Origin: an uncultured bacterium
GTDB lineage: Bacteria > CAIJMQ01
Length of the DNA stretch: 15,069 bases
Assembly: GCA_964573245.1 (NCBI GenBank)
Contig: CAZNJA010000033.1
Location: 1 to 15,069 of the forward strand
Direction: 5' to 3'
Part shown: positions 913 through 13,111 of the stretch, in pieces
Layout of the letters: every line of letters begins with the position of its first letter
Position numbering within the stretch: the stretch's first letter is position 1
Translations under genes and position numbers: made by a program
Notes under the pieces: generated by a model
Database searches by the model: none
Seen by the model: only the letters and a program-made list of their open reading frames with translations
What the model was told of the DNA's origin: nothing

Positions 913-3900
913 TTATTGTATCTGCTCTACTCTCTTGCCTATGGGATTATCTAACCATACAAGATAGCATTTAATCTCCTTGTCAGGATAAATCTTAGAA
1001 ATGCCAACCCTATAATTTTGCATCTGTTTGATGTATTTTTTAGTTGAATTGGGAGTGGTACCCATAAATTTTTCGCCTGTTTTATAATCTATAATTTTTA
1101 TACAATCACTTTCTATAATTAGTCGGTCTATCCTTCCTAATACACTTGTTTTGTTTTTTTTGAAATAAATGGATATTTCGTTTTTAACCTTTGCCGTGTC
1201 GTCTAAACAAAAAACAAACCGCAGGTCTTCATCTGTCAGAACATCTTTCAATGTAAGATGTAATTTTTCAGACAGTTCTTTCTGTTCTTGCAAATTGCGC
1301 GAATAGGTTGCCTTTGTCTTGTCTATTGCGAAACAGATTACTTGTTCAAGGTTGGCTTCGTTTACTTTTTCTACGTTTGACAAAGCACAGTGACAGATTT
1401 CTCCCCACCTTAAAATGTCTCTTTGCTTATCCGAGATAATAGTTTTTTCTTCAGGTTCCATAAGAACTTTTTCCCGTTTGGGATAAGAGATAAAACCCTC
1501 TATTTTTCTTGCGGAAGATTCCCTTTTCCTTTTTGGTGAATTTTTTCTGTCTTGAATTTGTCCAAGTCTGTAAGATTTATTTTTAATTTGGATGTTTCCT
1601 GATTTGGTTATAAAGTTAAACCATGTTTTAGACAATCGCGCATTGTCATAGCCGATTATCCATAATCCTTCTTTGGCACGGGTCATAACAACATATAGAT
1701 TGTTTAATTCGTCATTGTAAATGCGTTTTTTCTCATCCCGGAAAATCTCCTTTCGGAATAATTTGAGCAGAGGGTCTTTTCTGTAATAGATATCATTTGT
1801 AATAAGTTTGGAGTTTGTTTCAGCATATTCAAAAATAAAATGTTCGTTTTCTATACCTTCCATATTCCATACGGTTTCGGCAAGCAACACAACCGGAAAT
1901 TCCAATCCTTTGGCTTTATGACAAGTAAGAATTTGCACGCCGTCGATTTCGCTTTCCGAAAATTTCAATGTTTGTCCGTATTGTTGCAGGTATTCAATAA
2001 ATGAAAATAAGGATGCTCCCTTCTCGTTTTCGAATTTATAGGCAATCTCCAACAATGCGGAAAAGGCGCCTTTGTTGTGTTTATATTTTCCCATCACATT
2101 AAATTGCGAATATATAAAAGAAATCAATTCGTATGGGCTGGCAAAGTCGCAAATTTCCAATATTTTCTGCAGTTTTTTGGTTGCTTCCCAATGTGGGTAT
2201 TTATTTTTTAGGGTTTCAAAGAGTCCGCAATCTTTTTTTTGCCTCAATATTTCCATCGTTTTTCCCTTAATGCAGAATAGCGGTGAGAGCAATGATAAAG
2301 AAAGATAAAAGTCCTCATAAGGATTAATTAGCCATTTCAACAGATTCACGATATCGCAAATTCCTTCTTGGTAAACAAGAGACCTCTTGGATTCGCTTCG
2401 CGTTGGGATGCCAGATTGTTCTAAAATTTCGGAGAATTTAGTCCCTGTTTGATTTCTGCGGATTAACAATGCGATTTCGTTGTAATTATAACCTTTCTTT
2501 TTTAAAGTTCTGATTGCATCTACAAGACTTGACTGAACCGCTTCAAACCCTTCTTTTTGTCTATATTCCCCAAAATTTTCCACAACAACCCATCCACCTT
2601 GCCCTTGCATTGCTTTCATTGGTTTATGAGTTGGGATAAGAGAAAACACATCATTAACAAAGTTTACTATTTCCTCTTTGCTTCGATAATTTTCCGTAAG
2701 ATATTCGGCTCGTATTTTGCCCGAGAATTTGTTTTTTATATGGTCGAATAATCGACTTTCTCCACCTCTAAAACGATAAATAGCTTGGTTCGGGTCTCCT
2801 ACATAAAAAAAACTATGATTTTGTCCGGCTACGATTTCTTCGGCAACCGGCTCCAATATTTTCCATTGGATTATAGAAGTGTCTTGAAACTCATCTATCA
2901 AAAGATGTTCTATTTGGCTTGAGGATTTAAAATATAAATAATCCTTTGTTTGAATATTCGAAAATGCTTTGAGCGCGTAATTTTCAAGGTCGCTGAAAGT
3001 GACTAAATTTGCGTCCTTTTTTGCCCCTTGCAGCCTGTCATGAATTGTAAAAAGCAGATTAAGATTATCGAAAAGAAGTTTGCGGTTGTTAAAAGATGCG
3101 AATTCTTTTGCCTGACGGCTTATGGATAAAGCCAACCTGTTCAATTGCGTGCCTATTTGCGGCTCTTCTTTTAATTTTTCAAAATAACTTTTATTGAATA
3201 GGTCTATTATTTCGCTTATCAAAGTTTCTTTTTCTCCGTTCCTCAAAAGATTGTCTATTGTTTCTATTTTTTTGCTCAAGTTTTTATTGTTGCTACCGCT
3301 GTTTTTCAGAAGCTCTACAATCCCCAAGCAGTCTTGTCCCAAACAAGCAAAATCCTGAAAAGGTTTTTGTTTTGTCTCTTTTAGATATGTAAAAATTCCT
3401 TGTATTTCGAGCATTCTAGGAAGCACAGACAAAAAAAGATTTTTTACGGTGTCTTTTGCATTACGCTTTTTTACATCTAATACCTTGCTTACCAGTGCCC
3501 TATGATTGGGTTCATTTATCGAATCTTTTAAAAATTCGTCTATGACCTTATCTATTAAAATGTTTTCTTCATATGTTTCCATTATTCTAAAATCAGGCAG
3601 GACATTTGTCTGGAATGGAATTGTTTTTAATATGGAATTCAGGAAAGAATGAATCGTGGAAACGTTGAAATCCGAAAAACTGGAAAAAAGCCGATGTTTT
3701 AAACCCTCAGCTTTTTTTGTTATATCTTTGAAACGAGAACTAAATATTTGCGTAATTTCTTTTTCTTGCGGAAATTTTTCGGGGCTGGCCAAAATGTTTA
3801 AATAATGGACTATTCGCTCTTGCATTTCTCGAGATGCTTTATTTGTAAATGTGAGCGCGTATATGGATGAGATATTTTCGTGTTTCAAGTAGAGGTCCAA

Positions 3901-3990
3901 AAAACGAAGAGACAACGCACGTGTTTTCCCTGTTCCTGCAGATGCGGACAGGGCTAAATTTGTGTTTGAGTTGAATAGAATCTTATCCAT
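913..3990 (-). CDS. addA: AddA/RecB-like SF1A (UvrD-type) helicase with C-terminal PD-(D/E)xK nuclease
   Basis: Walker A SASAGTGKT, LTFTNKASREMQERI, STIHSF, IDEFQDTS, VGDPNQAIYRFRG, LTENYRS, TCHKAKGLEF, LYVVMTRA. The C-terminus has the RecB-type nuclease motif GRIDRL...IIDYKTG...QMQNY. 1025 aa. Confidence 0.9.
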   Translation of the reverse strand: MDKILFNSNTNLALSASAGTGKTRALSLRFLDLYLKHENISSIYALTFTNKASREMQERIVHYLNILASPEKFPQEKEITQIFSSRFKDITKKAEGLKHRLFSSFSDFNVSTIHSFLNSILKTIPFQTNVLPDFRIMETYEENILIDKVIDEFLKDSINEPNHRALVSKVLDVKKRNAKDTVKNLFLSVLPRMLEIQGIFTYLKETKQKPFQDFACLGQDCLGIVELLKNSGSNNKNLSKKIETIDNLLRNGEKETLISEIIDLFNKSYFEKLKEEPQIGTQLNRLALSISRQAKEFASFNNRKLLFDNLNLLFTIHDRLQGAKKDANLVTFSDLENYALKAFSNIQTKDYLYFKSSSQIEHLLIDEFQDTSIIQWKILEPVAEEIVAGQNHSFFYVGDPNQAIYRFRGGESRLFDHIKNKFSGKIRAEYLTENYRSKEEIVNFVNDVFSLIPTHKPMKAMQGQGGWVVVENFGEYRQKEGFEAVQSSLVDAIRTLKKKGYNYNEIALLIRRNQTGTKFSEILEQSGIPTRSESKRSLVYQEGICDIVNLLKWLINPYEDFYLSLSLLSPLFCIKGKTMEILRQKKDCGLFETLKNKYPHWEATKKLQKILEICDFASPYELISFIYSQFNVMGKYKHNKGAFSALLEIAYKFENEKGASLFSFIEYLQQYGQTLKFSESEIDGVQILTCHKAKGLEFPVVLLAETVWNMEGIENEHFIFEYAETNSKLITNDIYYRKDPLLKLFRKEIFRDEKKRIYNDELNNLYVVMTRAKEGLWIIGYDNARLSKTWFNFITKSGNIQIKNKSYRLGQIQDRKNSPKRKRESSARKIEGFISYPKREKVLMEPEEKTIISDKQRDILRWGEICHCALSNVEKVNEANLEQVICFAIDKTKATYSRNLQEQKELSEKLHLTLKDVLTDEDLRFVFCLDDTAKVKNEISIYFKKNKTSVLGRIDRLIIESDCIKIIDYKTGEKFMGTTPNSTKKYIKQMQNYRVGISKIYPDKEIKCYLVWLDNPIGKRVEQIQ

Positions 3991-3991
3991 A

Positions 3992-4080
3992 ATAAAGTGG
4001 AGAGTATAACAAATAGAAAAAAGCAGTAAAATCCTAAAATGTATTTCTCTGTACTCTTTGCTATCTATTTGCTACTTTAT
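3992..4080 (-). repeat. Imperfect inverted repeat with purine-rich and pyrimidine-rich arms spanning the pgm-addA spacer
   Basis: Complementary blocks: ATAAAGT/ACTTTAT (ends), CAAATAGA/TCTATTTG, AGAGTA/TACTCT. TAGCAAA occurs twice; 7-nt periodicity is weak. Confidence 0.5.
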
Positions 4081-5435
4081 ATTTCAGCGGTAATAAATGG
4101 GTATTCTTCAAGTTTTTTCTTTATTTCGTTTTTTATTTCTTGAAGACTTTGTTCGGTTTTTGCTTCAAATCTTAACACCAGTATGGGTTGAGTGTTGGAA
4201 GCTCTGATAAGTCCCCATCCATTTTCAAAAAGGACTCGGACTCCGTCTATGTCTATTGTTTTATATCTTTTCTGAAAATAGTCTTTTAGTTGCTCCACGA
4301 CTTCGAATTTTTCTTGTTCAGGGCAATTAATTCTTATCTCCGGCGTAGAATAATAATTCGGAATTTCGTCTGCCAATTGCGAAAATTTTTCTCCTGTTTT
4401 CGAAAGTATTTCAAGTAGCCTCAAAGAAGCAAAAAACGCGTCATCGAAGCCTAAGTAATTATCTTTAAAAAACATATGTCCGCTCATTTCACCGGCGAGC
4501 AAAGCACCTTCTTCTTTCATCTTTTCTTTTATAAGGGAATGCCCTGTTTTCCACATTATCGGCTTGCCCCCGTATTTTTCTATGTATTCCATAGTCGCTT
4601 GCGAGCACTTGACGTCCATAATAACTTTTGAATGTGGATGTCGAGAAAGCACCTCTTTTGCGTAAAGGCATAAAAGTCTATCGCCCCAAATGATTCTTCC
4701 TTTGTCATCTATTGCGCCTATACGGTCTGCATCGCCGTCGTATCCTATGCCTATATCCGCATTCAGCTCTTTGACTTTGCCTATCAAATCCTGCATGTTT
4801 TTTAAAACGGTCGGGTCGGGCAGATGGTTCGGAAAATTTCCGTCAGGATCTATATAAAGATAAAAAGGGTCAAGGTTTAATTTTTTCATTAATTCGGGGA
4901 CCAGAAATCCTGATGTCCCGTTTCCCCCGTCTATTACAATTTTCAAATCGGGATCAATCTTTACTTTTTCCGCGACGAAATCAATATAATCTTGTTTGGG
5001 GTTTTTCTTTGAAAGAGTTCCTTTTCCCTTTTCGAAGTTTTTCGACTCTATTATGCATCGTAATTTTTGTATATCTTCGCCGTAAAGAGAACTCAAGCCT
5101 TTGCAGACCTTAAATCCGTTGTATTCGGGCGGGTTGTGGCTTCCGGTGAGCATCACTCCACCGGTTTGAGAATATAAATGTATGGAAAAATAAAGAAGCG
5201 GTGTAGGCAAAGTCCCAACATCTATTACATCGCAACCGGTAGCCAATAATCCTTTAATAAGCGCGTTTGCAAGCAGGGGGGAACTTTTGCGATTATCTTT
5301 GCCTACTACTATTTTATTTCCGTATTTTTTCAAATATGTGCCAACGGCTTGTCCGATTTCTCTTGCGACTTCTTCGGTCAAATCTTTTCCTACAAGCCCT
5401 CTTATGTCGTACTCGCGGAAAATATGCGGATTCAT
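4077..5435 (-). CDS. Phosphomannomutase/phosphoglucomutase (AlgC-like alpha-D-phosphohexomutase)
   Basis: IFREYDIRG N-terminus, catalytic TGSHNP, metal loop DGDADR, sugar-binding GEMSGH, phosphate-binding RASNT. Start moved from TTG 5453 to ATG 5435, which has an AGGAG Shine-Dalgarno at 5440-5444. Confidence 0.95.
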   Translation of the reverse strand: MNPHIFREYDIRGLVGKDLTEEVAREIGQAVGTYLKKYGNKIVVGKDNRKSSPLLANALIKGLLATGCDVIDVGTLPTPLLYFSIHLYSQTGGVMLTGSHNPPEYNGFKVCKGLSSLYGEDIQKLRCIIESKNFEKGKGTLSKKNPKQDYIDFVAEKVKIDPDLKIVIDGGNGTSGFLVPELMKKLNLDPFYLYIDPDGNFPNHLPDPTVLKNMQDLIGKVKELNADIGIGYDGDADRIGAIDDKGRIIWGDRLLCLYAKEVLSRHPHSKVIMDVKCSQATMEYIEKYGGKPIMWKTGHSLIKEKMKEEGALLAGEMSGHMFFKDNYLGFDDAFFASLRLLEILSKTGEKFSQLADEIPNYYSTPEIRINCPEQEKFEVVEQLKDYFQKRYKTIDIDGVRVLFENGWGLIRASNTQPILVLRFEAKTEQSLQEIKNEIKKKLEEYPFITAEI

Positions 5436-5446
5436 AAGTCTCCTGT

Positions 5447-5594
5447 AAATCAAAAATCAAATACCAAATATTACCCCTAGAAATTCCAGAGGGAAAACAC
5501 AAACCAAAAAGATAAAAATTCAGAAAACAAAATAACTTTCAAACGAGATATTCTAGTCCTTAATTTTTTATTTTTATATTTTGATATTTAATAT
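5447..5594 (-). repeat. Heptamer-periodic inverted-repeat element (ATCAAAA/TTTTGAT type) with a 20-bp GC-rich palindromic insert
   Basis: Sense-strand 5' arm ATATTAA ATATCAA AATATAA AAATAAA AAATTAA. 3' arm ...TTTTTGGTTTGTGTTTT[CCCTCTGGAATTTCTAGGGG]TAATATT TGGTATT TGATTTT TGATTT. Homologous to 11371-11545. Confidence 0.8.
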
Positions 5595-5605
5595 GTTTTT
5601 TAATG

Positions 5606-6595
5606 CTACCATCTTAAAAGAACGGCGCCCCAAGTAAGTCCACCCCCAAAAGCGTCAAGCAAAAGCAAATCTCCTTTTTTTATTTTACCTGCTCTAAATG
5701 CTTCATCTAAAGCGATAGGTATGGTGGCAGCAGAGGTGTTTCCGTATCTTTCTACGTTTATGTAGACCTTTTCCCTGGGAATTCCTAATCTGGTTGCCGT
5801 TGCGTTTATTATGCGGATATTTGCTTGGTGGGGAATAAATAAATTTATATCTTCGGGTTTTACTTTTGCCCTCTGCATCACATCTTTGGCGGCGTCTACC
5901 AATGATTTTACTGCCAATTTAAATAGTTCGTTTCCATGCATTTTCAAATAATGCATTTTCCCATTTACTGTTTCGTGCGTTGCAGGATTGCGGGACCCCC
6001 CTGCAGGCAAGTAAAGTAATTTTCCCGCCGAACCTATTGCCCCCAAAGAACTTGCCAATAAACCTTCATTTTCATTATCGCCGGCACTTATGACAACTGC
6101 ACCCGCGCCGTCGCCTAATAATACGCAAGTTCCTCTGTCTTCCCAGTCCGTTATTTTGGATAATGTTTCTGCAGCTATCAAAAGAATATTTTTATATTGT
6201 CCTTGGCATATTAACGAATGACCTACGACTAATCCATAAATAAATCCAGAACAAGCAGCTGAAATGTCCAAAGCCGCTGCATTTTTGGCGCCCAGTCTGT
6301 CTTGAATTATGCATGCTGTGGAAGGGAAAAACATGTCCGGGGTAATAGTGGCTACTAATATCAAATCTAATTCCGCAGGGTCCAAAGAAGCAGTTTTAAG
6401 CGCGATTTTTGCGGCTTCTATGCCCAAATCGGAAGTTGCTTGTTCTTTTTCCGCAATTCTTCTTTCTTTAATCCCGGTTCTCTCGGTTATCCACTCGTCT
6501 GTCGTATTAACCACTTTTTCCATATCCGCGTTGGTAAGAACCCTTTCGGGCAAATACGAGCCTACCCCTATAATTTTCATGTTTTTTGCCATCAT
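5606..6595 (-). CDS. fabH: Beta-ketoacyl-ACP synthase III
   Basis: WITERTGIKERR, catalytic triad AACSGF / PHQAN / GNTSAA, FGGGLTWG. Overlaps the plsX stop (ATGA); the start could be either tandem Met. Confidence 0.97.
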   Translation of the reverse strand: MMAKNMKIIGVGSYLPERVLTNADMEKVVNTTDEWITERTGIKERRIAEKEQATSDLGIEAAKIALKTASLDPAELDLILVATITPDMFFPSTACIIQDRLGAKNAAALDISAACSGFIYGLVVGHSLICQGQYKNILLIAAETLSKITDWEDRGTCVLLGDGAGAVVISAGDNENEGLLASSLGAIGSAGKLLYLPAGGSRNPATHETVNGKMHYLKMHGNELFKLAVKSLVDAAKDVMQRAKVKPEDINLFIPHQANIRIINATATRLGIPREKVYINVERYGNTSAATIPIALDEAFRAGKIKKGDLLLLDAFGGGLTWGAVLLRW

Positions 6596-7596
6596 GTTTG
6601 AGTCCTTTCTGCAACATGGTTGGTTTCAAAATACCTTTGTATTTCTTTGTTTACGTTTGTCTTCACTTCTTTTCCCGCCACAAGAATACTGTTTTTTATA
6701 GCGGCAGAAGAAGACGAACCATGTGCTTTTATACAATATCCTCCTGTTCCTAACAAAGGAACTCCGCCGTATGAAGCATAGTCGAGTTTGCATTTGAAAG
6801 TTTTATACGCATCTTTTACTAAAAATGCTCCCAATTTGGAAAGCATCTTTTTATCTATTTCTTTTTTGAGTAAAACCTCTAATGTCTCGGTGAAACCTTC
6901 CATACACTTGAGAAGTATATTGCCTACAAAACCATCACACACAATCACATCTACACTACCAAAAAAAATATCTCTACCTTCAATATTTCCGATAAAATTA
7001 AGATTGCTGTTTTTAAGGAGTTTATATGTTTTTTTAACCACTTGATTGCCTTTGGAACTTTCTTCCCCGATATTAATTAGCCCTACAATAGGGTTTTCCT
7101 TTTCCATAATCTTTTTTGCGTAAATACTACCCATTATTGCGAACTGAAAAAGATTCTCCGCGGAAGAATCTACGGTTGCGCCCACATCCAAAAGCAAGGA
7201 TACACCTTTGGCGGTTGGCAAAGGACTGGCTAAAGCAGCTCGCTTTATCCCCGGTATAAGTTTAAGATTAATAGTCGCCGCCGCAACATACGCTCCCGTA
7301 TTCCCTGCGGTAACCACCGCGTCAACTTCCCCAGTTTTTAACAAATTAATCGCTTTGACTATGGAAGAGTCTTTTTTCTTTCTTATGGCAAACGAGGGGG
7401 ATTCATCCATCCTAATAACTTCAGCGGCATGACAAATAGGGATTTTATAAGTATTTTTCCCCAGAAAAGGGGTTATTTTTTCTTTATCGCCAACAAGAAC
7501 GATTTCTTCTTTAATTTGCTTAAGAGCGGATAAGACGCCGTCTATTACTGCTTGCGGAGCATTATCTCCTCCCATCGCGTCAACTGCTATCTTCAA
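6592..7596 (-). CDS. plsX: Phosphate acyltransferase PlsX
   Basis: IAVDAMGGDNAP, AGNTGA, NIGEESSKGN, GNIEGRDI, VCDGFVGNILLK, KAHGSS. TTG start with GAGGA Shine-Dalgarno; rpmF-plsX-fabH synteny. Confidence 0.97.
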   Translation of the reverse strand: MKIAVDAMGGDNAPQAVIDGVLSALKQIKEEIVLVGDKEKITPFLGKNTYKIPICHAAEVIRMDESPSFAIRKKKDSSIVKAINLLKTGEVDAVVTAGNTGAYVAAATINLKLIPGIKRAALASPLPTAKGVSLLLDVGATVDSSAENLFQFAIMGSIYAKKIMEKENPIVGLINIGEESSKGNQVVKKTYKLLKNSNLNFIGNIEGRDIFFGSVDVIVCDGFVGNILLKCMEGFTETLEVLLKKEIDKKMLSKLGAFLVKDAYKTFKCKLDYASYGGVPLLGTGGYCIKAHGSSSSAAIKNSILVAGKEVKTNVNKEIQRYFETNHVAERTQT

Positions 7597-7611
7597 TTTG
7601 TCCTCACTTTG

Positions 7612-7679
7612 CTAGAGATAGTTAATAGTTCGTAGTATTTGGTTTATAGTTATTGCTATCCACTATCCAATATTAACTA
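7612..7679 (-). repeat. Heptamer-periodic inverted-repeat element (TAGnnnn/CTAnnnn type)
   Basis: Sense strand TAGTTAA TATTGGA TAGTGGA TAG caataa CTATAAA CCAAATA CTACGAA CTATTAA CTATCT. TAGTTAATA/TATTAACTA is a perfect 9-bp pair. Confidence 0.8.
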
Positions 7680-7685
7680 AGTAAG

Positions 7686-7862
7686 TTAACCAACTTCCAT
7701 AACTTTTTTCTTCCCATAATAACCGCAATTGGGGCATATATGATGGGGAAGTTTCAGGTGATGGCACTGAGAACATTCAACGAGAGTAGGTGCTTTTAAC
7801 TTCTTTATGGATTTTCTTTTCCCTTGCTTTGACTTTGATACTTTCCTTTTCGGAACTCCCAT
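7686..7862 (-). CDS. rpmF: 50S ribosomal protein bL32, zinc-binding form
   Basis: Manual translation MGVPKRKVSKSKQGKRKSIKKLKAPTLVECSQCHHLKLPHHICPNCGYYGKKKVMEVG (58 aa) with two CxxC motifs. AAGGAG Shine-Dalgarno; lies directly upstream of plsX. Confidence 0.97.
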   Translation of the reverse strand: MGVPKRKVSKSKQGKRKSIKKLKAPTLVECSQCHHLKLPHHICPNCGYYGKKKVMEVG

Positions 7863-7900
7863 GTTAACTCCTTTTTAAGTTTACATTGTTAACATTTTAA

Positions 7901-9994
7901 TCAGTTTTTTGAAATTTGCAATCTTGCGTCTATTACCCTGCCACCCCTTCCAAACACCAAAAAAGGATTTGCTTCAATTTCTATTATTCGTTCGGAAAAA
8001 TCCGAAACCAATTGAGAAAGTCTCAAAATCGCGTCCACAACGGACGAGATATCTGATGGTTTTTCCCCTCGCACTCCCGCAAGCAGCGGATAAGCGTATT
8101 TTGTCTCTTTGAGCATTTCAAGAACCTTTTTCTGCGTGACGGGTACTATTCTGGAAGAAGTGTCTTTGAATACTTCAACATACTTGCCACCCAATCCGAA
8201 CCTAATCATATGTCCAAATATTTCGTCCTTTGAAACCCCGACAAGCACTTCTTTGCCTTCTTTTATCATGGGTTGCAAAGAAACCCCAGATATTCTAGAA
8301 GTGATTTTTTTCGCTTCTGCCATCATATCTTTGAAATTATCCAACAGTTGGGATTTTTCTATATTCAACCTGACCCCTCCCATATCGGATTTATGAATGA
8401 TATCCTGTGATTCTATTTTCATAACATAAGGTGGGGTTATCTTATGATAGGCTTTTTCGATTTCCCCTTCATTTTTTACGAGTATGTTTTCAATGACTGG
8501 GATACCATACAGCCCCAAAATTTCTAATGCAGTGCTACCCCCTATTATATCTTGAGAATTGTTTCTTAATTCTTCCATAATTTTGGAAACTTTCTTTTTA
8601 GGAACATTGAATTTTGTAATTTTATCTTCTTTGCTTTGCATCCATTCACCATGATTTTTCAATGCCTCCAGAACCTTTACTGCTTCTTCAGGGCTGGAAT
8701 AATTGGGTATTCCGCTTACTTCAAGCCGCTTGACTGCGTCTTTTATTTTCTCGTGTCCCATGAAAGACGTAAGCAATGGTTTTTTTATATTTTTGCATTC
8801 TTCGGTTATAACATCTGCAATTTGTAGTGTGTTTGTGGCTGATTGGGGAGTAAGAAGCACCAGAAAAGCATCGATATTTTTATCTTTCCCGGCTCTTTTC
8901 AAGGCTGTGCTGTACCTGTCGTCTTGGGCATCGCCTAAAATATCCACGGGATTATTTACGGAGGCGCTGGAGGGCAACACTCCCTTTAATTTTGCTTTTG
9001 TAGCTCCTTCAAGTTTTGCCATTTCAAGCGTTGTTTTTTCTACCATATCCGTAGCAAGAATTCCCGCGCCTCCAGCATTCGTAATGACCAATACCTTATT
9101 GCCTTTCGGAGGTTTTTGCTTTAAGAACCCTTTTACGACGGCAAATGCGTCTTCGAAAGTATCGACTCTTATGATTCCACATTCTTTGAACGCTACGTTA
9201 AACGCTTCGTCTTTTCCTGCAAGTGCTCCTGTATGGGATGATGCGGCTCTGCTTCCCCATTCGGTTCTACCAGACTTTATCATTATTATAGGTTTTTTCT
9301 TGCTTACTTTTTTTGCGACTTCTATGAATCTATTTCCGTTTTCGATACTTTCCAAGTATCCAAGAATGACTTTTGAGGTTTCATCTTCCGCAAGCATTTG
9401 AAGGACTTCTATCTCGCTTATGTCGGCTTTGTTTCCCAAAGATATGAATTTCGACATCCCAATATCTTTGCCTGATATTCTATCCAAAACCGCACATCCC
9501 AGCGCTCCTGATTGAGAAAAAAACGCAAGATTTCCTTTGAAAGGATACACCGGAGCAAAAGACGCATCCATCTTCGAATACGTGTCTATAATACCCAAAA
9601 CATTTGGCCCTATCATTCTAATGCCGTATTTTCTACATTTTTCGACTAATTTTTTCTCGAGAACAGCGCCTTCTTTCCCTGTTTCTTTAAATCCCGCAGA
9701 AATAACCACAATTGCTTTTACGCCCTTTTTGCCGCATTCTTCTATTACTTGCAATATAACTTGGGATGGGATAATAAGAATAGCCAAATCTACTTGTGAG
9801 GAGATATTTTTTACCGACGAGACCACCTTTTTATTTAAAAGAGTTCCGCCTTCAAGTTTGGGATTTACAGGATAAACCTCTCCATCATAGCCGGCTTTCA
9901 ATATTTTTTCGAAAACTTGATAACCCAACTTTTGTTTATTCTCGCTGGCTCCTATGACTGCTATACCCTTCGGGCGAAAAAAATCTCTCATCAT
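7901..9994 (-). CDS. ADP-forming acetate/acyl-CoA ligase, fused alpha-beta (ACD family)
   Basis: CoA-binding domain (IAVIGAS, YPVNP, ISAGFKE, GPNVLG), SQSGALG, phospho-His SHTGALAG, TNAGGAG, NPVDI, and ATP-grasp domain with HKSDMGGV and IEANP. No GNAT domain, so not a Pat/PatZ acetyltransferase. Confidence 0.9.
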   Translation of the reverse strand: MMRDFFRPKGIAVIGASENKQKLGYQVFEKILKAGYDGEVYPVNPKLEGGTLLNKKVVSSVKNISSQVDLAILIIPSQVILQVIEECGKKGVKAIVVISAGFKETGKEGAVLEKKLVEKCRKYGIRMIGPNVLGIIDTYSKMDASFAPVYPFKGNLAFFSQSGALGCAVLDRISGKDIGMSKFISLGNKADISEIEVLQMLAEDETSKVILGYLESIENGNRFIEVAKKVSKKKPIIMIKSGRTEWGSRAASSHTGALAGKDEAFNVAFKECGIIRVDTFEDAFAVVKGFLKQKPPKGNKVLVITNAGGAGILATDMVEKTTLEMAKLEGATKAKLKGVLPSSASVNNPVDILGDAQDDRYSTALKRAGKDKNIDAFLVLLTPQSATNTLQIADVITEECKNIKKPLLTSFMGHEKIKDAVKRLEVSGIPNYSSPEEAVKVLEALKNHGEWMQSKEDKITKFNVPKKKVSKIMEELRNNSQDIIGGSTALEILGLYGIPVIENILVKNEGEIEKAYHKITPPYVMKIESQDIIHKSDMGGVRLNIEKSQLLDNFKDMMAEAKKITSRISGVSLQPMIKEGKEVLVGVSKDEIFGHMIRFGLGGKYVEVFKDTSSRIVPVTQKKVLEMLKETKYAYPLLAGVRGEKPSDISSVVDAILRLSQLVSDFSERIIEIEANPFLVFGRGGRVIDARLQISKN

Positions 9995-10169
9995 AATTTT
10001 TAAAGGTTATTTAAAAGTAATTTAAAATTTGGGAATAGATTATATCTGATAACATCATCTTTTTCAATTTAAGGTATTTTTTTTTAAAAGGATTTCTTTT
10101 TTAGAAAAATGAATGTTTGTCTCAAAGATGGTAATATAGGCAGTATATAAAATATATAGGGAGGTAAAA

Positions 10170-11228
10170 ATGCGAAAAGAATCGTTGGGTTTTTTGAAAG
10201 AACTCGTGGAAACCCCGTCACCTTCGGGTTTCGAAACGGCGGCGAGGAAAGTTATAGAAACCAGAATGAAAAAAATCACAAAGGACATTTCAGTCGATGT
10301 ATTGGGAAATCTGACCGCCATTTTAAACAAAAACGCAAGACCAAGAATTATGCTTGCAGCGCATTGCGATGAAATAGGATTTATGGTGAAGTTCATATCC
10401 GATGACGGCTTTATATATTTTACTACAATCGGAGGGATAGATACTCACTTAATCCCTGGCAGAAAAGTTTATATCCATAATAAGAAAGAAAAAATTTTGG
10501 GAGTAATAGGCAAAAAAGCAGTGCATTTGATGGATGAAGAGGAAAGAAAAAAAATCTCCAAGATAGAAGACTTGTGGATAGATATTGGCGCAAAAAATAA
10601 AAAACAGGCCCAAGGATTAGTAGCTATTGGCGACCCTATAACTTTTGTGGAAAAAATGGATGTTTTAAAGGACGACCTGATAGTGTCAAGAGGTTTGGAC
10701 GATAAAATGGGGGTATATCTTATTGTGGAAATTATGGAACAGCTCAAAAACAAAAAACTATCTTCTTCCTTATATGGAGTTATCACCGTTCAAGAAGAGG
10801 TAGGTTTAAGAGGCGCCGTTCCTTCTACTTTTAGAGTGGCACCGGATATAGGTATTTGTATCGAAGTTACTCATGCAACAGACTATCCTTCTGTTGACAA
10901 AAAGAAAGTCGGGGAATACAAAATTGGTTCAGGTCCCGTTATAAGCAAAGGCGCGAATATAAATCCCACGTTGTTTGATATTTTGGTAGATACCGCAAAA
11001 AAAGAAAAAATACCTTATCAAATTTTAGGAGAACCAGGCAGAACCGGAACAGACACAAATGTTATGCAACTTTCCAGAGAGGGCGTTGCGACCGCGCTTG
11101 TATCCGTTCCTTTGAGATATATGCATACTCCGATTGAACTGCTTTCCACAAAAGACCTTGACTGGACTGTGCGCCTAATTGTCGCGACAATTAGCAGAAT
11201 TAAGCCGAGCGTACATTTCACGCCGTAA
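10170..11228 (+). CDS. M42 family metallo-aminopeptidase (TET/FrvX-like)
   Basis: SPSGFE, AAHCDEIG, GGID, LDDK, QEEVGLRGA, EVT, GTD, RYMHTP metal-ligand motifs; GGAGG Shine-Dalgarno. Confidence 0.95.
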   Translation: MRKESLGFLKELVETPSPSGFETAARKVIETRMKKITKDISVDVLGNLTAILNKNARPRIMLAAHCDEIGFMVKFISDDGFIYFTTIGGIDTHLIPGRKVYIHNKKEKILGVIGKKAVHLMDEEERKKISKIEDLWIDIGAKNKKQAQGLVAIGDPITFVEKMDVLKDDLIVSRGLDDKMGVYLIVEIMEQLKNKKLSSSLYGVITVQEEVGLRGAVPSTFRVAPDIGICIEVTHATDYPSVDKKKVGEYKIGSGPVISKGANINPTLFDILVDTAKKEKIPYQILGEPGRTGTDTNVMQLSREGVATALVSVPLRYMHTPIELLSTKDLDWTVRLIVATISRIKPSVHFTP

Positions 11229-11241
11229 ACGTTCTTGTAAA

Positions 11242-11270
11242 TTGACTGGAAAATCTAAACCACTTATAAT
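11242..11270 (+). promoter_or_regulatory. Sigma70-type promoter of the tRNA cluster
   Basis: TTGACT (11242-11247), 17-nt spacer, TATAAT (11265-11270), 13 nt before tRNA-Lys. Confidence 0.85.
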
Positions 11271-11283
11271 AAAATCCGCTTTT

Positions 11284-11360
11284 GGGCCATTAGCTCAATT
11301 TGGCAGAGCAGTGGACTCTTAATCCATTGGTTGCAGGTTCAAGTCCTGCATGGCCCACCA
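11284..11360 (+). tRNA. tRNA-Lys (anticodon CTT), CCA encoded
   Basis: Acceptor GGGCCAT/ATGGCCC, anticodon arm GTGGA-CTCTTAA-TCCAT, T arm GCAGG-TTCAAGT-CCTGC, ends ACCA. Confidence 0.97.
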
Positions 11361-11370
11361 ATTAACTGAA

Positions 11371-11545
11371 ATATTAAAAATCAAAAATAAGATATCAAAA
11401 ATAATGTATACATATAAAAAGAATTTTTAGGTTTTTGGTATGTGTTTTCCCTCTGGAATCTTGGAAAGATTCCGAGGACTCAGTCCCTGAAATTGCTTCG
11501 CAATTTCTAGGGGTGGTTTTTGGTCTTTAATATTTAATTTTATTT
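11371..11545 (+). repeat. Heptamer-periodic inverted-repeat element (ATCAAAA/TTTTGAT type) with a 65-bp double-hairpin insert
   Basis: 5' arm ATATTAA AAATCAA AAATAAG ATATCAA AAATAA. 3' arm TTTTTGGTATGTGTTTT[insert 11449-11513]TGGTTTT TGGTCTT TAATATT TAATTTT. Confidence 0.8.
11449..11513. mobile_element. Putative REP-doublet-like non-autonomous palindromic element
   Basis: CCTC-T-GGAATCTT-GGA-AAGATTCC-GAGG, then ACTCAGT, then CCCT-GAAATTGC-TTC-GCAATTTC-T-AGGG. Both ends are identical to the shorter copy at 5474-5493. Mobility is inferred, not shown. Confidence 0.5.
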
Positions 11546-11546
11546 C

Positions 11547-11629
11547 GCGGACGTGGCGGAACTGGTATACGCGTACGGCTTAGGACCGTATCCTCTCGTG
11601 GGTTGAGAGTTCAAATCTCTCCGTCCGCA
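11547..11629 (+). tRNA. tRNA-Leu (anticodon TAG), CCA not encoded
   Basis: Acceptor GCGGACG/CGTCCGC plus discriminator A, anticodon arm TACGG-CTTAGGA-CCGTA, long variable arm, T arm GAGAG-TTCAAAT-CTCTC. Confidence 0.96.
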
Positions 11630-11651
11630 CTGTTTAAGTAACATGGAAAAG

Positions 11652-11680
11652 TTGACAGTTTAGGGTTTATGGTTTATAGT
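11652..11680 (+). promoter_or_regulatory. Sigma70-type promoter upstream of tRNA-Gly-tig-clpP
   Basis: TTGACA (11652-11657), 17-nt spacer, TATAGT (11675-11680). The spacer and -10 lie within the heptamer repeat arm. Confidence 0.6.
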
Positions 11681-11730
11681 TGTCCTTCCAAAACCGCTTA
11701 CAATATACCACACACTATAGACTATTAGCT
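11656..11730 (+). repeat. Heptamer-periodic inverted-repeat element (TAGnnnn/CTAnnnn type)
   Basis: CAGTTTA GGGTTTA TGGTTTA TAGTT ... CCACACA CTATAGA CTATTAG CT. Shares the 12-mer TGGTTTATAGTT (11670-11681) with 7640-7651. Confidence 0.7.
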
Positions 11731-11737
11731 GGTCTTT

Positions 11738-11809
11738 GCGGGTGTAGCTCAGTGGTAGAGCATCACGTTGCCAACGTGAGGGTCACGAGTTCGAACCTCG
11801 TCGCCCGCT
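11738..11809 (+). tRNA. tRNA-Gly (anticodon GCC), CCA not encoded
   Basis: Acceptor GCGGGTG/CGCCCGC plus discriminator T, anticodon arm TCACG-TTGCCAA-CGTGA, T arm ACGAG-TTCGAAC-CTCGT. Confidence 0.97.
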
Positions 11810-11872
11810 CTAATCGGAACACAGAAATTTCCCCGATATCTTACGATGCGGGATTTCATAGGGAATAATAAA

Positions 11873-13111
11873 ATGCAAGTAGAAGTAAAAGTTTTAGAAA
11901 AACATAAAAAGTTGTTGTCCATCGAAATTCCGCAAGAAGAAGTGGAAAGAAGATTGACGAAAACGTATTCTACTGTCTTAAATAGTGCATCTGTCCCCGG
12001 ATTTAGAAAGGGGAAAGTCCCCCTTAAAATATTAAAACTTTATTACGGTAAAGACATAAAAAAACAAGTAGCCGAAGAACTCGTAAGCGAGTATTATAAA
12101 AAAGCGATTGAAGAGAAGGACTTGAAAGTAGCGCTTGCCCCGGAAATTAAAGAAGTGCAATTGGATGAAGGCAAACCACTGAAATTCGAAGCAGTGGTTG
12201 AGACATTTCCCAAATTCAAAATAGGAGAATATAAAGGTATTGAGATTGAAAGAGAAAAAGCCGAGATTACTAAAGAAGACGTTGAAGCAGTGCTTGAAAG
12301 GAAACGCGAAGAAAACGTTGAACTTATTCCTGTTAGTAATCGCCCCTCTCAAAACGGAGACCTTATAACGCTTGATTATAAGATTGAAATCGATAAAAAA
12401 ACAGCAAAAGAATTAAAAGACCAAAAGTTAATATTGGGGAAAACACCTGTTCCCAAGGAGTGGGAAAGAGAATTAACCGGGGTTAAGAAAGGTGATGTTA
12501 AGGAAATTCGGGCAAAATCCAAGTCGGAAAAACCTAAAGAAGTAGTATACAAATTCATTGTAAAAGACGTTCAGGAAAGAAAACTTTTAATTCTTAGTGA
12601 TGATTTCGCAAAAAAATTGGGCGATTTCGAAAATTTAGACAAGGTGCGGGAAAAGATAAAAACGGAGCTTGAAGGAATATCCAAGGTTTACGAAGAGGAA
12701 AATTTAAGAAGAGCTGTTATCGAGAAAGTGTTTAAAAATTCCGACATAGAAGTCCCGTTTTCCGTAACTAAACGGTTTTCGGAATATTACAGGTCTTTGA
12801 ACAAAGAATTAAGCGAAGAAGAAAGCAAAAAGATGGCGGAAGAAAACCTCAAGAAACAACTAATAATTGAAGAAATTGCCAAAAAAGAAAAAATAAAAGT
12901 GACTGACGAAGAAGTTAATAGACGAAAAATAGAAATTAAAGCGCGGGACGGTTCCGAAGAAAATATCAGAGAAGACTTGCAAAAAGACAAGGTTCTGAAA
13001 TTCCTTGTCGAAAACGCGAAAATAAAAGAAAAAGCGAAAAAAGTAATTCTTACTCCCAAAGAAGAAAATAAATCTTCTTTCTCCGAAAAAGGGAGTATCA
13101 TAACAGTTTAA
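11873..13111 (+). CDS. tig: Trigger factor
   Basis: Ribosome-binding signature [13 protein letters not shown]-like middle domain (GDLITLDY), tRNA-tig-clpP synteny. Start moved to ATG 11873 (MQVEVKVLE) with AGGGA Shine-Dalgarno. Confidence 0.93.

Follow-up and report, generated by a model that had tools for sequence, protein, structure and literature searches.

Inverted heptamer rows enclose PF05635/TIGR02436 genes and, probably as gene-less miniatures, occupy operon and tRNA spacers of an uncultured bacterium

Several spacers in a stretch of 15,069 nucleotides (nt) from an uncultured bacterium (contig CAZNJA010000033.1 of the assembly GCA_964573245.1; the whole stretch is referred to below as the window) contain paired, inverted rows of degenerate heptamers, five of which, between positions 3992 and 11730, had been pointed out from the sequence alone (hereafter, the original prediction). 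We found that such rows bracket genes of the PF05635/TIGR02436 family, both in this genome and in genomes of other phyla. The explanation we favor, at a probability of roughly 0.6, is that selfish cassettes and their gene-less miniatures colonize the spacers of co-transcribed genes and tRNAs throughout the genome, and that the five elements of the window belong among them. The finding is more general than what was originally proposed; the searches made here, in a metagenome-assembled genome (MAG) that is 93% complete, did not identify an enzyme that could move the DNA.

PF05635 genes between heptamer rows

The genome (G000; 1.46 Mb in 110 contigs, 38% GC, with the window on its 15-kb contig C33) encodes a PlsX protein 84% identical to that of a Candidatus Omnitrophota MAG, the nearest named record; it was compared, among others, with three sister species (G001-G003) and a member of a sister genus with similar GC content (G004). 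It contains six PF05635 genes, on contigs C46, C42, C15, C25, C91 and C64, and for five of the six, inverted rows of heptamers can be seen by eye on both sides, in a flavor particular to each gene:

C46 gene, between hypC and hypD: CGGTTAT/CGATAAC
C42 gene, between hisB and hisA: TAAGTAn/CTTAATn
C15 gene: GATACTn/nAGTATC
the remaining two bracketed genes: A/T-rich flavors

The C15 and C46 proteins match TIGR02436 (105 and 133 bits, respectively) and match Avd of the diversity-generating retroelements (DGR) only below its cut-off. Relatives of the C15 protein in the PDB, 2GSC and 2RLD, have five chains each as deposited.

The same arrangement recurs in relatives and in other phyla. PF05635 was found in 28 of the 61 sampled genomes, and the flanks of 42 loci, from about 25 genomes and many phyla, were given a fixed score; 525 control windows drawn from these loci served to set the cutoff, at their 95th percentile. 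At least one flank exceeded the cutoff at 29 loci (about 4 expected by chance), and both flanks did so at 16 (about 0.1 expected); at many loci, the upstream consensus is the reverse complement of the downstream consensus. The original suggestion that similar arms flank TIGR02436/PF05635 genes elsewhere is borne out, in the present genome and at the 29 loci, and no gene other than PF05635 was seen repeatedly between the arms in different phyla. At one locus (L150, G015:C13), the PF05635 gene is bracketed by repeats with a period of about 9 (GTTTAAAC/GCTTGAAC type), not 7, and in two genomes, G012 and G028, period-9 tracts outnumber those of period 7.

Arm flavor also follows the proteins. In a tree of the 42 proteins, clades that span phyla share the flavor TAGRCTn, CGGTTAn or AACTGnn. 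With 13 loci dropped because of weak or missing arms or a broken or fused open reading frame (ORF), the remaining 29 gave 327 cross-lineage pairs in which protein identity correlated with flavor similarity (Spearman 0.26, permutation p 0.0015, 2000 permutations); kin in these pairs are not independent, and about 2 of the 2000 label permutations reached a value as high. The proteins differ at 31-50% of their amino acids, a distance at which spacer DNA free of constraint would be expected to have lost such likeness. Period-7 tracts amount to 9.1 per 100 kb in G000 and 14.0 in G001 (200 kb), with 5-6 PF05635 genes in each; where no PF05635 was found, the densities were 0 in G004 (89 kb), 1.0 in G005 and 0 in G028.

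A gene-bearing copy and its miniatures

The relationship between cassettes and gene-less elements is most apparent in the GATnCTn family. A motif scan identified 60 arms of this flavor, which form 22 pairs and leave 16 arms unpaired. Exactly four heptamers make up 42 of the arms; three occur in 9 arms, five in 7 and six in 2. One of the pairs (C15) holds the gene for a 127-aa TIGR02436 protein; the other 21 enclose 14-66 nt. These miniatures retain the leader (GTAGAA..., A-rich, sometimes with AGGAGG) and the last codons (TTATTAAC TAG AAT C TAG), with the stop codon in the 3' arm, and, as both ends of the interior of the gene-bearing copy are thus preserved, they are internal-deletion derivatives of it. 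The original description of the elements as empty or miniature forms is supported for this one family. The 127-aa protein is all that the full-length partner encodes, and no transposase accompanies it. About 10-20 nt separate the miniatures from the stop codon upstream, and 6-30 nt from the start codon that follows. Orientation was assigned by eye for 18 of the 22 pairs and counted for those in co-oriented spacers: 11 run with the host genes and one against them (binomial p 0.006). A tRNA gene at C47:4839-5102 has GATnCTn miniatures on both sides, resembling the tRNA cluster of the window.

The window elements and the genome-wide tract population

The five elements of the window, and the features next to or within them, are the following:

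3992-4080, minus strand: hairpin with heptamer arms and no gene, located between the stop of the pgm-like gene (near 4077) and the start of a 1025-aa gene (3990)
5438-5606, minus strand: decayed copy with ATCAAAA/TTTTGAT arms in the fabH-pgm spacer
7612-7672, minus strand: gene-less TAGnnnn/CTAnnnn element between rpmF and plsX, filling the spacer from the stop codon of the former to the Shine-Dalgarno sequence of the latter
11361-11546, plus strand: full element with ATCAAAA/TTTTGAT arms in the tRNA-Lys/tRNA-Leu spacer
11449-11513, plus strand: hairpin doublet resembling repetitive extragenic palindromes (REP), made of hairpins 11449-11477 and 11485-11513 joined by GGAC-TCA-GTCC
11642-11732, plus strand: weak heptamer-arm element in the tRNA-Leu/tRNA-Gly spacer, with a 5' arm that overlaps a promoter-like site
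11284-11360, 11547-11630 and 11738-11810, plus strand: tRNA-Lys, tRNA-Leu and tRNA-Gly (ARAGORN, Rfam), with elements in both spacers

Lag-7 self-identity was compared with that of 500 dinucleotide shuffles, and all five elements stood out, with z of 3.5 (3992-4080), 4.2 (5447-5594), 4.2 (7612-7679), 3.0 (11371-11545) and 5.0 (11656-11730). A sliding-window scan of the genome for periods 4 to 11 under one common threshold returned 133 tracts of period 7, compared with 11, 3, 32, 13, 21, 10 and 1 for periods 4, 5, 6, 8, 9, 10 and 11; under a stricter threshold, 72 period-7 tracts remained vs 0-9 for the other periods. Of the 133, 102 lie mostly outside crude ORFs, although these cover 91% of the genome. 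The original expectation of a periodicity above that of shuffled spacers was confirmed. The genome contains many heptamer flavors, with 3-5 of the 7 positions conserved and a variable number of units. Stop codons in three frames were considered as the cause of the period and rejected by inspection, because flavors such as CAAGATA and CGGTTTT lack a stop codon on either or on one strand. The threshold of the genome scan calls only one tract in the window, 11642-11687; the window copies are weak members of the genome-wide population.

A laxer scan yielded 198 tracts, and 106 of the 1084 spacers hold one: 85 co-oriented, 12 divergent and 9 convergent, a split that roughly matches the proportions of the spacer types available. 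Among spacers of at least 60 nt, tracts occur in 79 of 446 co-oriented, 12 of 97 divergent and 7 of 56 convergent ones. As originally stated, all five window elements lie between co-oriented genes or tRNAs. The further statement that none resembles an intrinsic terminator, a GC-rich stem with a U-run immediately behind it, calls for a reservation: a simple terminator scan of the transcribed strand flagged one site within the elements, the core remnant at 5474-5492, and 8 terminator-like sites were found in the region vs 7.7 expected.

The minus-strand genes of the window are the 1025-aa gene, the pgm-like gene, fabH, plsX, rpmF and a 697-aa gene; on the plus strand are an M42-like peptidase gene, the three tRNA genes, tig and clpP. 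Rfam, searched over the window with E up to 1, gave the three tRNAs and no other match. The promoter-like site in the 5' arm before tRNA-Gly (11652-11680, TTGACA-17-TATAGT) agrees with the sigma-70 consensus at 11 of 12 positions, and a second such site precedes tRNA-Lys (11242-11270, TTGACT-17-TATAAT, also 11 of 12). The rpmF frame seems to extend beyond the border of the element by several codons (7673-7705) and ends in ...KLWKLVNLLS*, where the G001 protein ends in ...VMEVTK*; judging from the reading frames, the insertion appears to have changed the C-terminus of ribosomal protein L32.

Turnover at orthologous spacers

Comparison of orthologous spacers shows that the occupants come and go. 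Between hypC and hypD, the genes overlap in G004, G001 has an 81-nt GGTAA/TTAC hairpin, G003 a 115-nt GTTAAC hairpin, and G000 a 473-nt gene-bearing CGGTTAT cassette. This cassette is 88% identical over 416 nt to a cassette at a different locus of G001, the flanks of which match C15:15270-15391 in G000, where a GATnCTn miniature sits; one cassette is thus present at different loci in two species. The hisB-hisA spacer of G003 measures 44 nt; that of G001 is taken up by a TAGAAAT hairpin of 93 nt, that of G002 by 322 nt in which hairpins are nested and the arms are of the ATCAAAA flavor, and that of G000 by the gene-bearing TAAGTA cassette. More widely, at least four spacers of the G002 his operon (C57:3478-9237) are larger than in G000, through inserts of about 540, 322, 189 and 1550 nt, and the first two of these contain nested hairpin doublets and A/T-rich heptamer rows.

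The spacers of the window behave in the same manner. Between rpmF and plsX, the TAG/CTA flavor is present in G000 and G001 and a CAGA flavor in G002 and G003, with a second element nested in that of G002; the G004 spacer has 40 nt and no period 7. The spacer at 3991-4076 is occupied by CAGA/TCTG hairpins in G001 and G003 and by a different insert of 264 nt in G002, and is short in G004, and the fabH-pgm spacer is 171 nt long in G000 vs 37 nt in G001 and 39 nt in G004. Variation in presence and cargo among relatives, which the original prediction had proposed to look for, was found at several such spacers. Contigs from four DNA runs, aligned to 3900-11900, gave shallow coverage and joints supported by one contig each with short sides (an X1 contig that skips 3993-4076, for example), and were disregarded as evidence. 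Given that sister species manage without them, the elements are most readily viewed as selfish.

Hairpin doublets inside heptamer arms

Two of the window elements are homologous: on the reverse strand, 5438-5606 aligns with 11358-11548, and the latter aligns over its full length with copies on contigs C21, C16, C44 and C4. The outer ATCAAAA/TTTTGAT arms of 11358-11548 are common to five copies. In the full element (11361-11546), the 5' arm (about 11370-11404) is followed by an inner tail motif, the hairpin doublet and the 3' arm (about 11514-11546), and an inverted repeat links 11360-11387 with 11517-11544 (82% match). In the decayed copy, half of hairpin 1 is fused to half of hairpin 2 (about 5474-5492) and the middle of the doublet is gone. 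Both the homology and the conserved hairpin pair at 11449-11513 had escaped the original prediction.

An iterated nhmmer search located doublets or arrays of them at 45 loci, including 11449-11513 (other examples are C9:19982-20153 and C34:1192-1345), several of them at contig ends and 44 outside ORFs. The consensus runs CCCYNGRAAT...ATTYCNRGG, GGAC-TNA-GTCC, second hairpin; a 21-copy alignment supports 24 consensus pairs, 12 of which show pair-keeping changes on both sides. T-rich tracts follow the doublets, and some arrays, such as C3:4253-4425, read as doublets inserted into the loop of a pre-existing hairpin. Association with the heptamer rows is weak, with 9 of the 45 loci beside a called period-7 tract vs 21 of 226 control spacers.

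REPs and the REPINs built from them are extragenic palindromes of about 29 nt that form inverted doublets and are accompanied by a REP-associated tyrosine transposase (RAYT) (PMC3116915). The doublets share with them imperfect palindromes of 20-40 nt in inverted arrangement, a high copy number, intergenic location and covarying stems. They differ in the foot, which in REP palindromes carries a conserved GTAG or CGTC and here is CCCT/CCCC ... AGGG/GGGG in 21 of 21 copies, in an unbiased orientation, and in that no RAYT was found in the MAG. The sole match to PF01797 (Y1_Tnp; 32.7 bits) is the N-terminus of a 436-aa protein (C12:23859-25169) with KVYLL at what we take to be the position of the HUH motif. 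The C-terminal part of this protein resembles a 202-aa protein encoded just upstream. With no HUH transposase found in the 93% complete MAG, a RAYT/REPIN mechanism was rejected.

Folding of the arms

Complementarity of the arms was addressed by folding because their mismatches are periodic and many tracts share a flavor. Ungapped inverted-match scoring (28 of 133 tracts above the 99th percentile of the control) and pairing of adjacent tracts by position weight matrices (13 of 106 neighbor pairs above the random 95th percentile) both proved too blunt. For 24 tight arm pairs from elsewhere in the genome, the median fold z relative to shuffles was -3.4, and 21 of the 24 fell below -2; their stems alternate 3-bp and 2-bp blocks with single mismatches at the variable heptamer positions. 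In the window, where the complementarity of the arms can be made out by eye, the RNA fold of 11358-11548 has a z of -5.1, and that of 3985-4085 reaches -2.4 and -2.6 on the two strands, both beyond shuffles.

Observations that weigh against the cassettes

A number of results speak against the proposed origin of the elements. The other three in the window have a fold z of -1.3/-1.1 (7597-7700), -0.1/+0.6 (11631-11737) and -0.6 (5438-5606), none beyond shuffles. The ORF list of the window places no frame between the arms of any of the five, which could only be gene-less derivatives of PF05635 cassettes, three of them decayed. With neither an enclosed gene nor excess folding, the membership of the three that do not fold beyond shuffles is argued from period 7, position and orthologous sites. 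The absence of arms above the cutoff at 13 of the 42 PF05635 loci and the low tract density of G012 (2.0 per 100 kb, with nine PF05635 genes) point in the same direction, and co-inheritance of gene and arms alone gives some correlation between flavor and clade. There was no visible target-site duplication at the 17 GATnCTn elements printed with their flanks.

Orientation is equivocal as well. The original argument, that arm order is constant relative to transcription, fails as given because an inverted pair of arms reads alike from both strands. The orientation bias that was to be sought across the genome appears only in the GATnCTn family, whereas the family with an asymmetric core (ATCAAAA/REP) shows 10 copies in the same direction as transcription vs 16 in the opposite direction. 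As regards a putative RNA-level role of the elements, sense and antisense fold energies are alike (sense more stable in 9 of 16, p 0.98).

Nor did the 93% complete MAG yield a nuclease, transposase or reverse transcriptase able to move the cassettes. RVT_1, IS110 and TnpB-type domains were not found, and retro-mobility was rejected given the lack of an RVT_1 match. One pair of inverted ATCAAAA/TTTTGAT rows encloses a gene of a different kind, for a 205-aa HNH endonuclease (C9:13376-14107), between genes that we read, from their translations, as gatC and gatA. This armed gene is missing from the sister species, G001-G003 holding only the other HNH paralogue, and could point to homing. HNH genes as general cargo were rejected because the only full-length relatives found (G004, G060) lack arms. 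Other arm pairs 400-1500 nt apart are neighboring elements and not bearers of cargo, as they enclose ordinary genes, from the translations one GTPase-like and one ITPase-like.

Proposed mechanism and alternative explanations

In the cassette model, an intact copy would comprise a 5' row of about four degenerate heptamers, a short A-rich leader, a PF05635/TIGR02436 gene of about 120 codons and a complementary 3' row. Most copies would have lost the gene and persist as miniatures, some with REP-like hairpin doublets in its place; they would be moved in trans and would not be host regulatory sites. In the transcript, the arms would fold into a weak stem, with the insert tucked between a stop codon and the next start codon. 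The heptamer rows might be recognition sites of the cassette's own, putatively ring-shaped protein, given that certain heptamer positions are conserved within a row, that the variable positions are not complementary between the arms and that flavor follows clade; such recognition would also account for the flavor tracking the protein clade. More tentatively, and well short of even odds in our estimate, PF05635/TIGR02436 proteins would read the rows one heptamer per ring subunit, in a clade-specific flavor, and thereby let cassettes without a transposase spread or persist in transcribed spacers. HutP, which reads UAG every 7 nt, and TRAP, which reads GAG or UAG every 5 nt, offer an analogy: an oligomeric ring, as the five chains of 2GSC and 2RLD may suggest, could read one motif per subunit. 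The analogy is imperfect in that the arms mostly have 4 units, not 5. DGR Avd is, to our knowledge, the only member of PF05635 for which binding has been demonstrated.

It seems unlikely that the elements are instead host RNA structures, stems for processing, mRNA stabilization, termination or tuning of translation that carry PF05635 genes as passengers. Such a role would fit the placement of the elements, some 10 nt behind a stop codon and 7-20 nt ahead of the following start, as well as their 11:1 preference for the sense direction, the folding of 21 of the 24 tight pairs beyond shuffles and the T-rich tracts after the hairpin doublets, and there are precedents: the stem of the Coxiella intervening sequence (IVS) is cut by RNase III (PMC4990558), and TAACTGA repeats just upstream of starts have been proposed as translational regulators (PMC4679880). 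However, a fixed regulatory role would not predict other flavors, nothing or a gene in the same spacer of sister species, nor a G004 free of elements at the four sites examined, and both the tracts that lie in divergent or convergent spacers and the similar energies of the two strands count against it. RNase III processing as in the IVS was not carried over to the cassettes because its domain was not found in five of five genomes of the family: PF14622 has no match in G000 and PF00636 none in G000-G004 (81-96% complete), whereas both models match in 8 of 14 control genomes.

We consider it quite improbable that the rows are neutral, microsatellite-like slippage tracts that come and go in AT-rich spacers, comparable to the cyanobacterial STRR repeats discussed below, and paired through palindromic duplication, into which PF05635 genes happen to insert preferentially. 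This would accommodate the conservation of only 3-5 of 7 positions, the variable number of units and the many flavors, as well as the variation in heptamer number among Coxiella strains (PMC4990558), but not the 42 of 60 GATnCTn arms with exactly 4 units, the conservation of the inner leader and tail among copies, the flavors kept in phylum-spanning protein clades at 31-50% amino-acid divergence, the lack of a comparable excess at periods 5, 6 and 8, or the sister genus of similar GC with 0 tracts in 89 kb. Another explanation invokes classical non-autonomous transposons, of the miniature inverted-repeat transposable element (MITE) or REPIN type, with the rows as subterminal sites and the transposase or RAYT encoded in the unassembled 7% or on another replicon. 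Inverted rows of short sites are typical of transposon ends, such as those of Tn7, Mu and Ac/Ds, and the many copies, several at contig ends, the nested insertions and the REPIN-like doublets are in line with it. Such an origin is nonetheless doubtful: each of the many flavors would presumably call for its own transposase, searches of the MAG with PF01797 (apart from the relative without HUH), PF01548, PF07282 and PF00078 found none, and PF05635 alone recurs inside arms across phyla; unlike MITEs, the GATnCTn elements show neither a target-site duplication nor a transposase-coding partner.

Relation to known repeats and significance

The closest known counterpart of the cassettes is the 23S IVS with an S23p (PF05635) ORF, reported from Leptospira, Coxiella, Brucella and Xanthomonas (PMC4990558). 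In Coxiella, the IVS is bounded by inverted repeats, and the S23p ORF is preceded by heptameric repeats that vary in number; IVSs are regarded as selfish, with mobility unexplained and a near-perfect 28-bp stem, and S23p from X. campestris has been reported to form a homopentameric toroid (PMC4990558). The cassettes share the protein family inside, the inverted repeats, the heptamers and the sense orientation within a host transcript. They differ in their location in mRNA and tRNA spacers, in the mismatched heptamer stems and in that most copies lack the gene. The 23S gene of G001 is 2977 nt long vs 2925 positions of the model, with no insert and no period-7 tract nearby; no heptamer arms were found at the rRNA operon of G001, and the G000 MAG has no 23S gene.

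TAACTGA direct repeats, known from Beggiatoaceae, Cyanobacteria and Bacteroidetes (MacGregor 2015, PMC4679880), are intergenic, come in 2-6 copies per set, lie mostly a few nt upstream of starts and are patchily distributed across phyla. In these sets, one and the same heptamer is repeated exactly and in direct orientation, apart from one inverted instance, and the terms 'helix bundle', 'intervening' and 'S23' are absent from the main text of that paper (PMC4679880). AACTGA-type flavors flank PF05635 genes in G020, G034 and G043; the cassettes are distinguished by their many flavors, paired inverted arms and cargo gene. Two further groups of repeats might bear comparison: the cyanobacterial short tandemly repeated repetitive (STRR) sequences (Mazel 1990), said to consist of heptamers arrayed in tandem between genes, and the dispersed repeats of Nostoc (Elhai 2008), reportedly very small, hairpin-forming and inserting into one another, in which they are similar to the nested hairpin doublets of G000. 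We know of no link between either of these and PF05635. Our literature search, which covered the texts outside subscription journals and supplements, found no statement of a general association between heptamer rows and PF05635, nor a published name for it.

The published contexts of PF05635 that we found are the 23S IVS and a distant likeness to DGR Avd; the present results give this very common orphan family a testable job, the binding of its own heptamers. They also indicate that, in a small genome, roughly one spacer in ten (106 of 1084) can be occupied by gene-less miniatures, and suggest a possible origin for heptamer repeats so far reported as unexplained. For annotation, they serve as a warning that what looks like a 'structured' operon spacer in such genomes is, in many cases, probably a selfish insertion rather than a regulatory RNA; such insertions would also account for the breaks that MAGs of this group show at these sites. 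If the failure to find RNase III reflects a true absence, the lineage of G000-G004 does without the classical enzyme. Finally, if PF05635 proteins do read the heptamer rows, a single system would join the 23S IVSs, the heptamer repeats of Cyanobacteria, Beggiatoaceae and Bacteroidetes, the four-helix-bundle orphans and the Avd proteins of DGRs.

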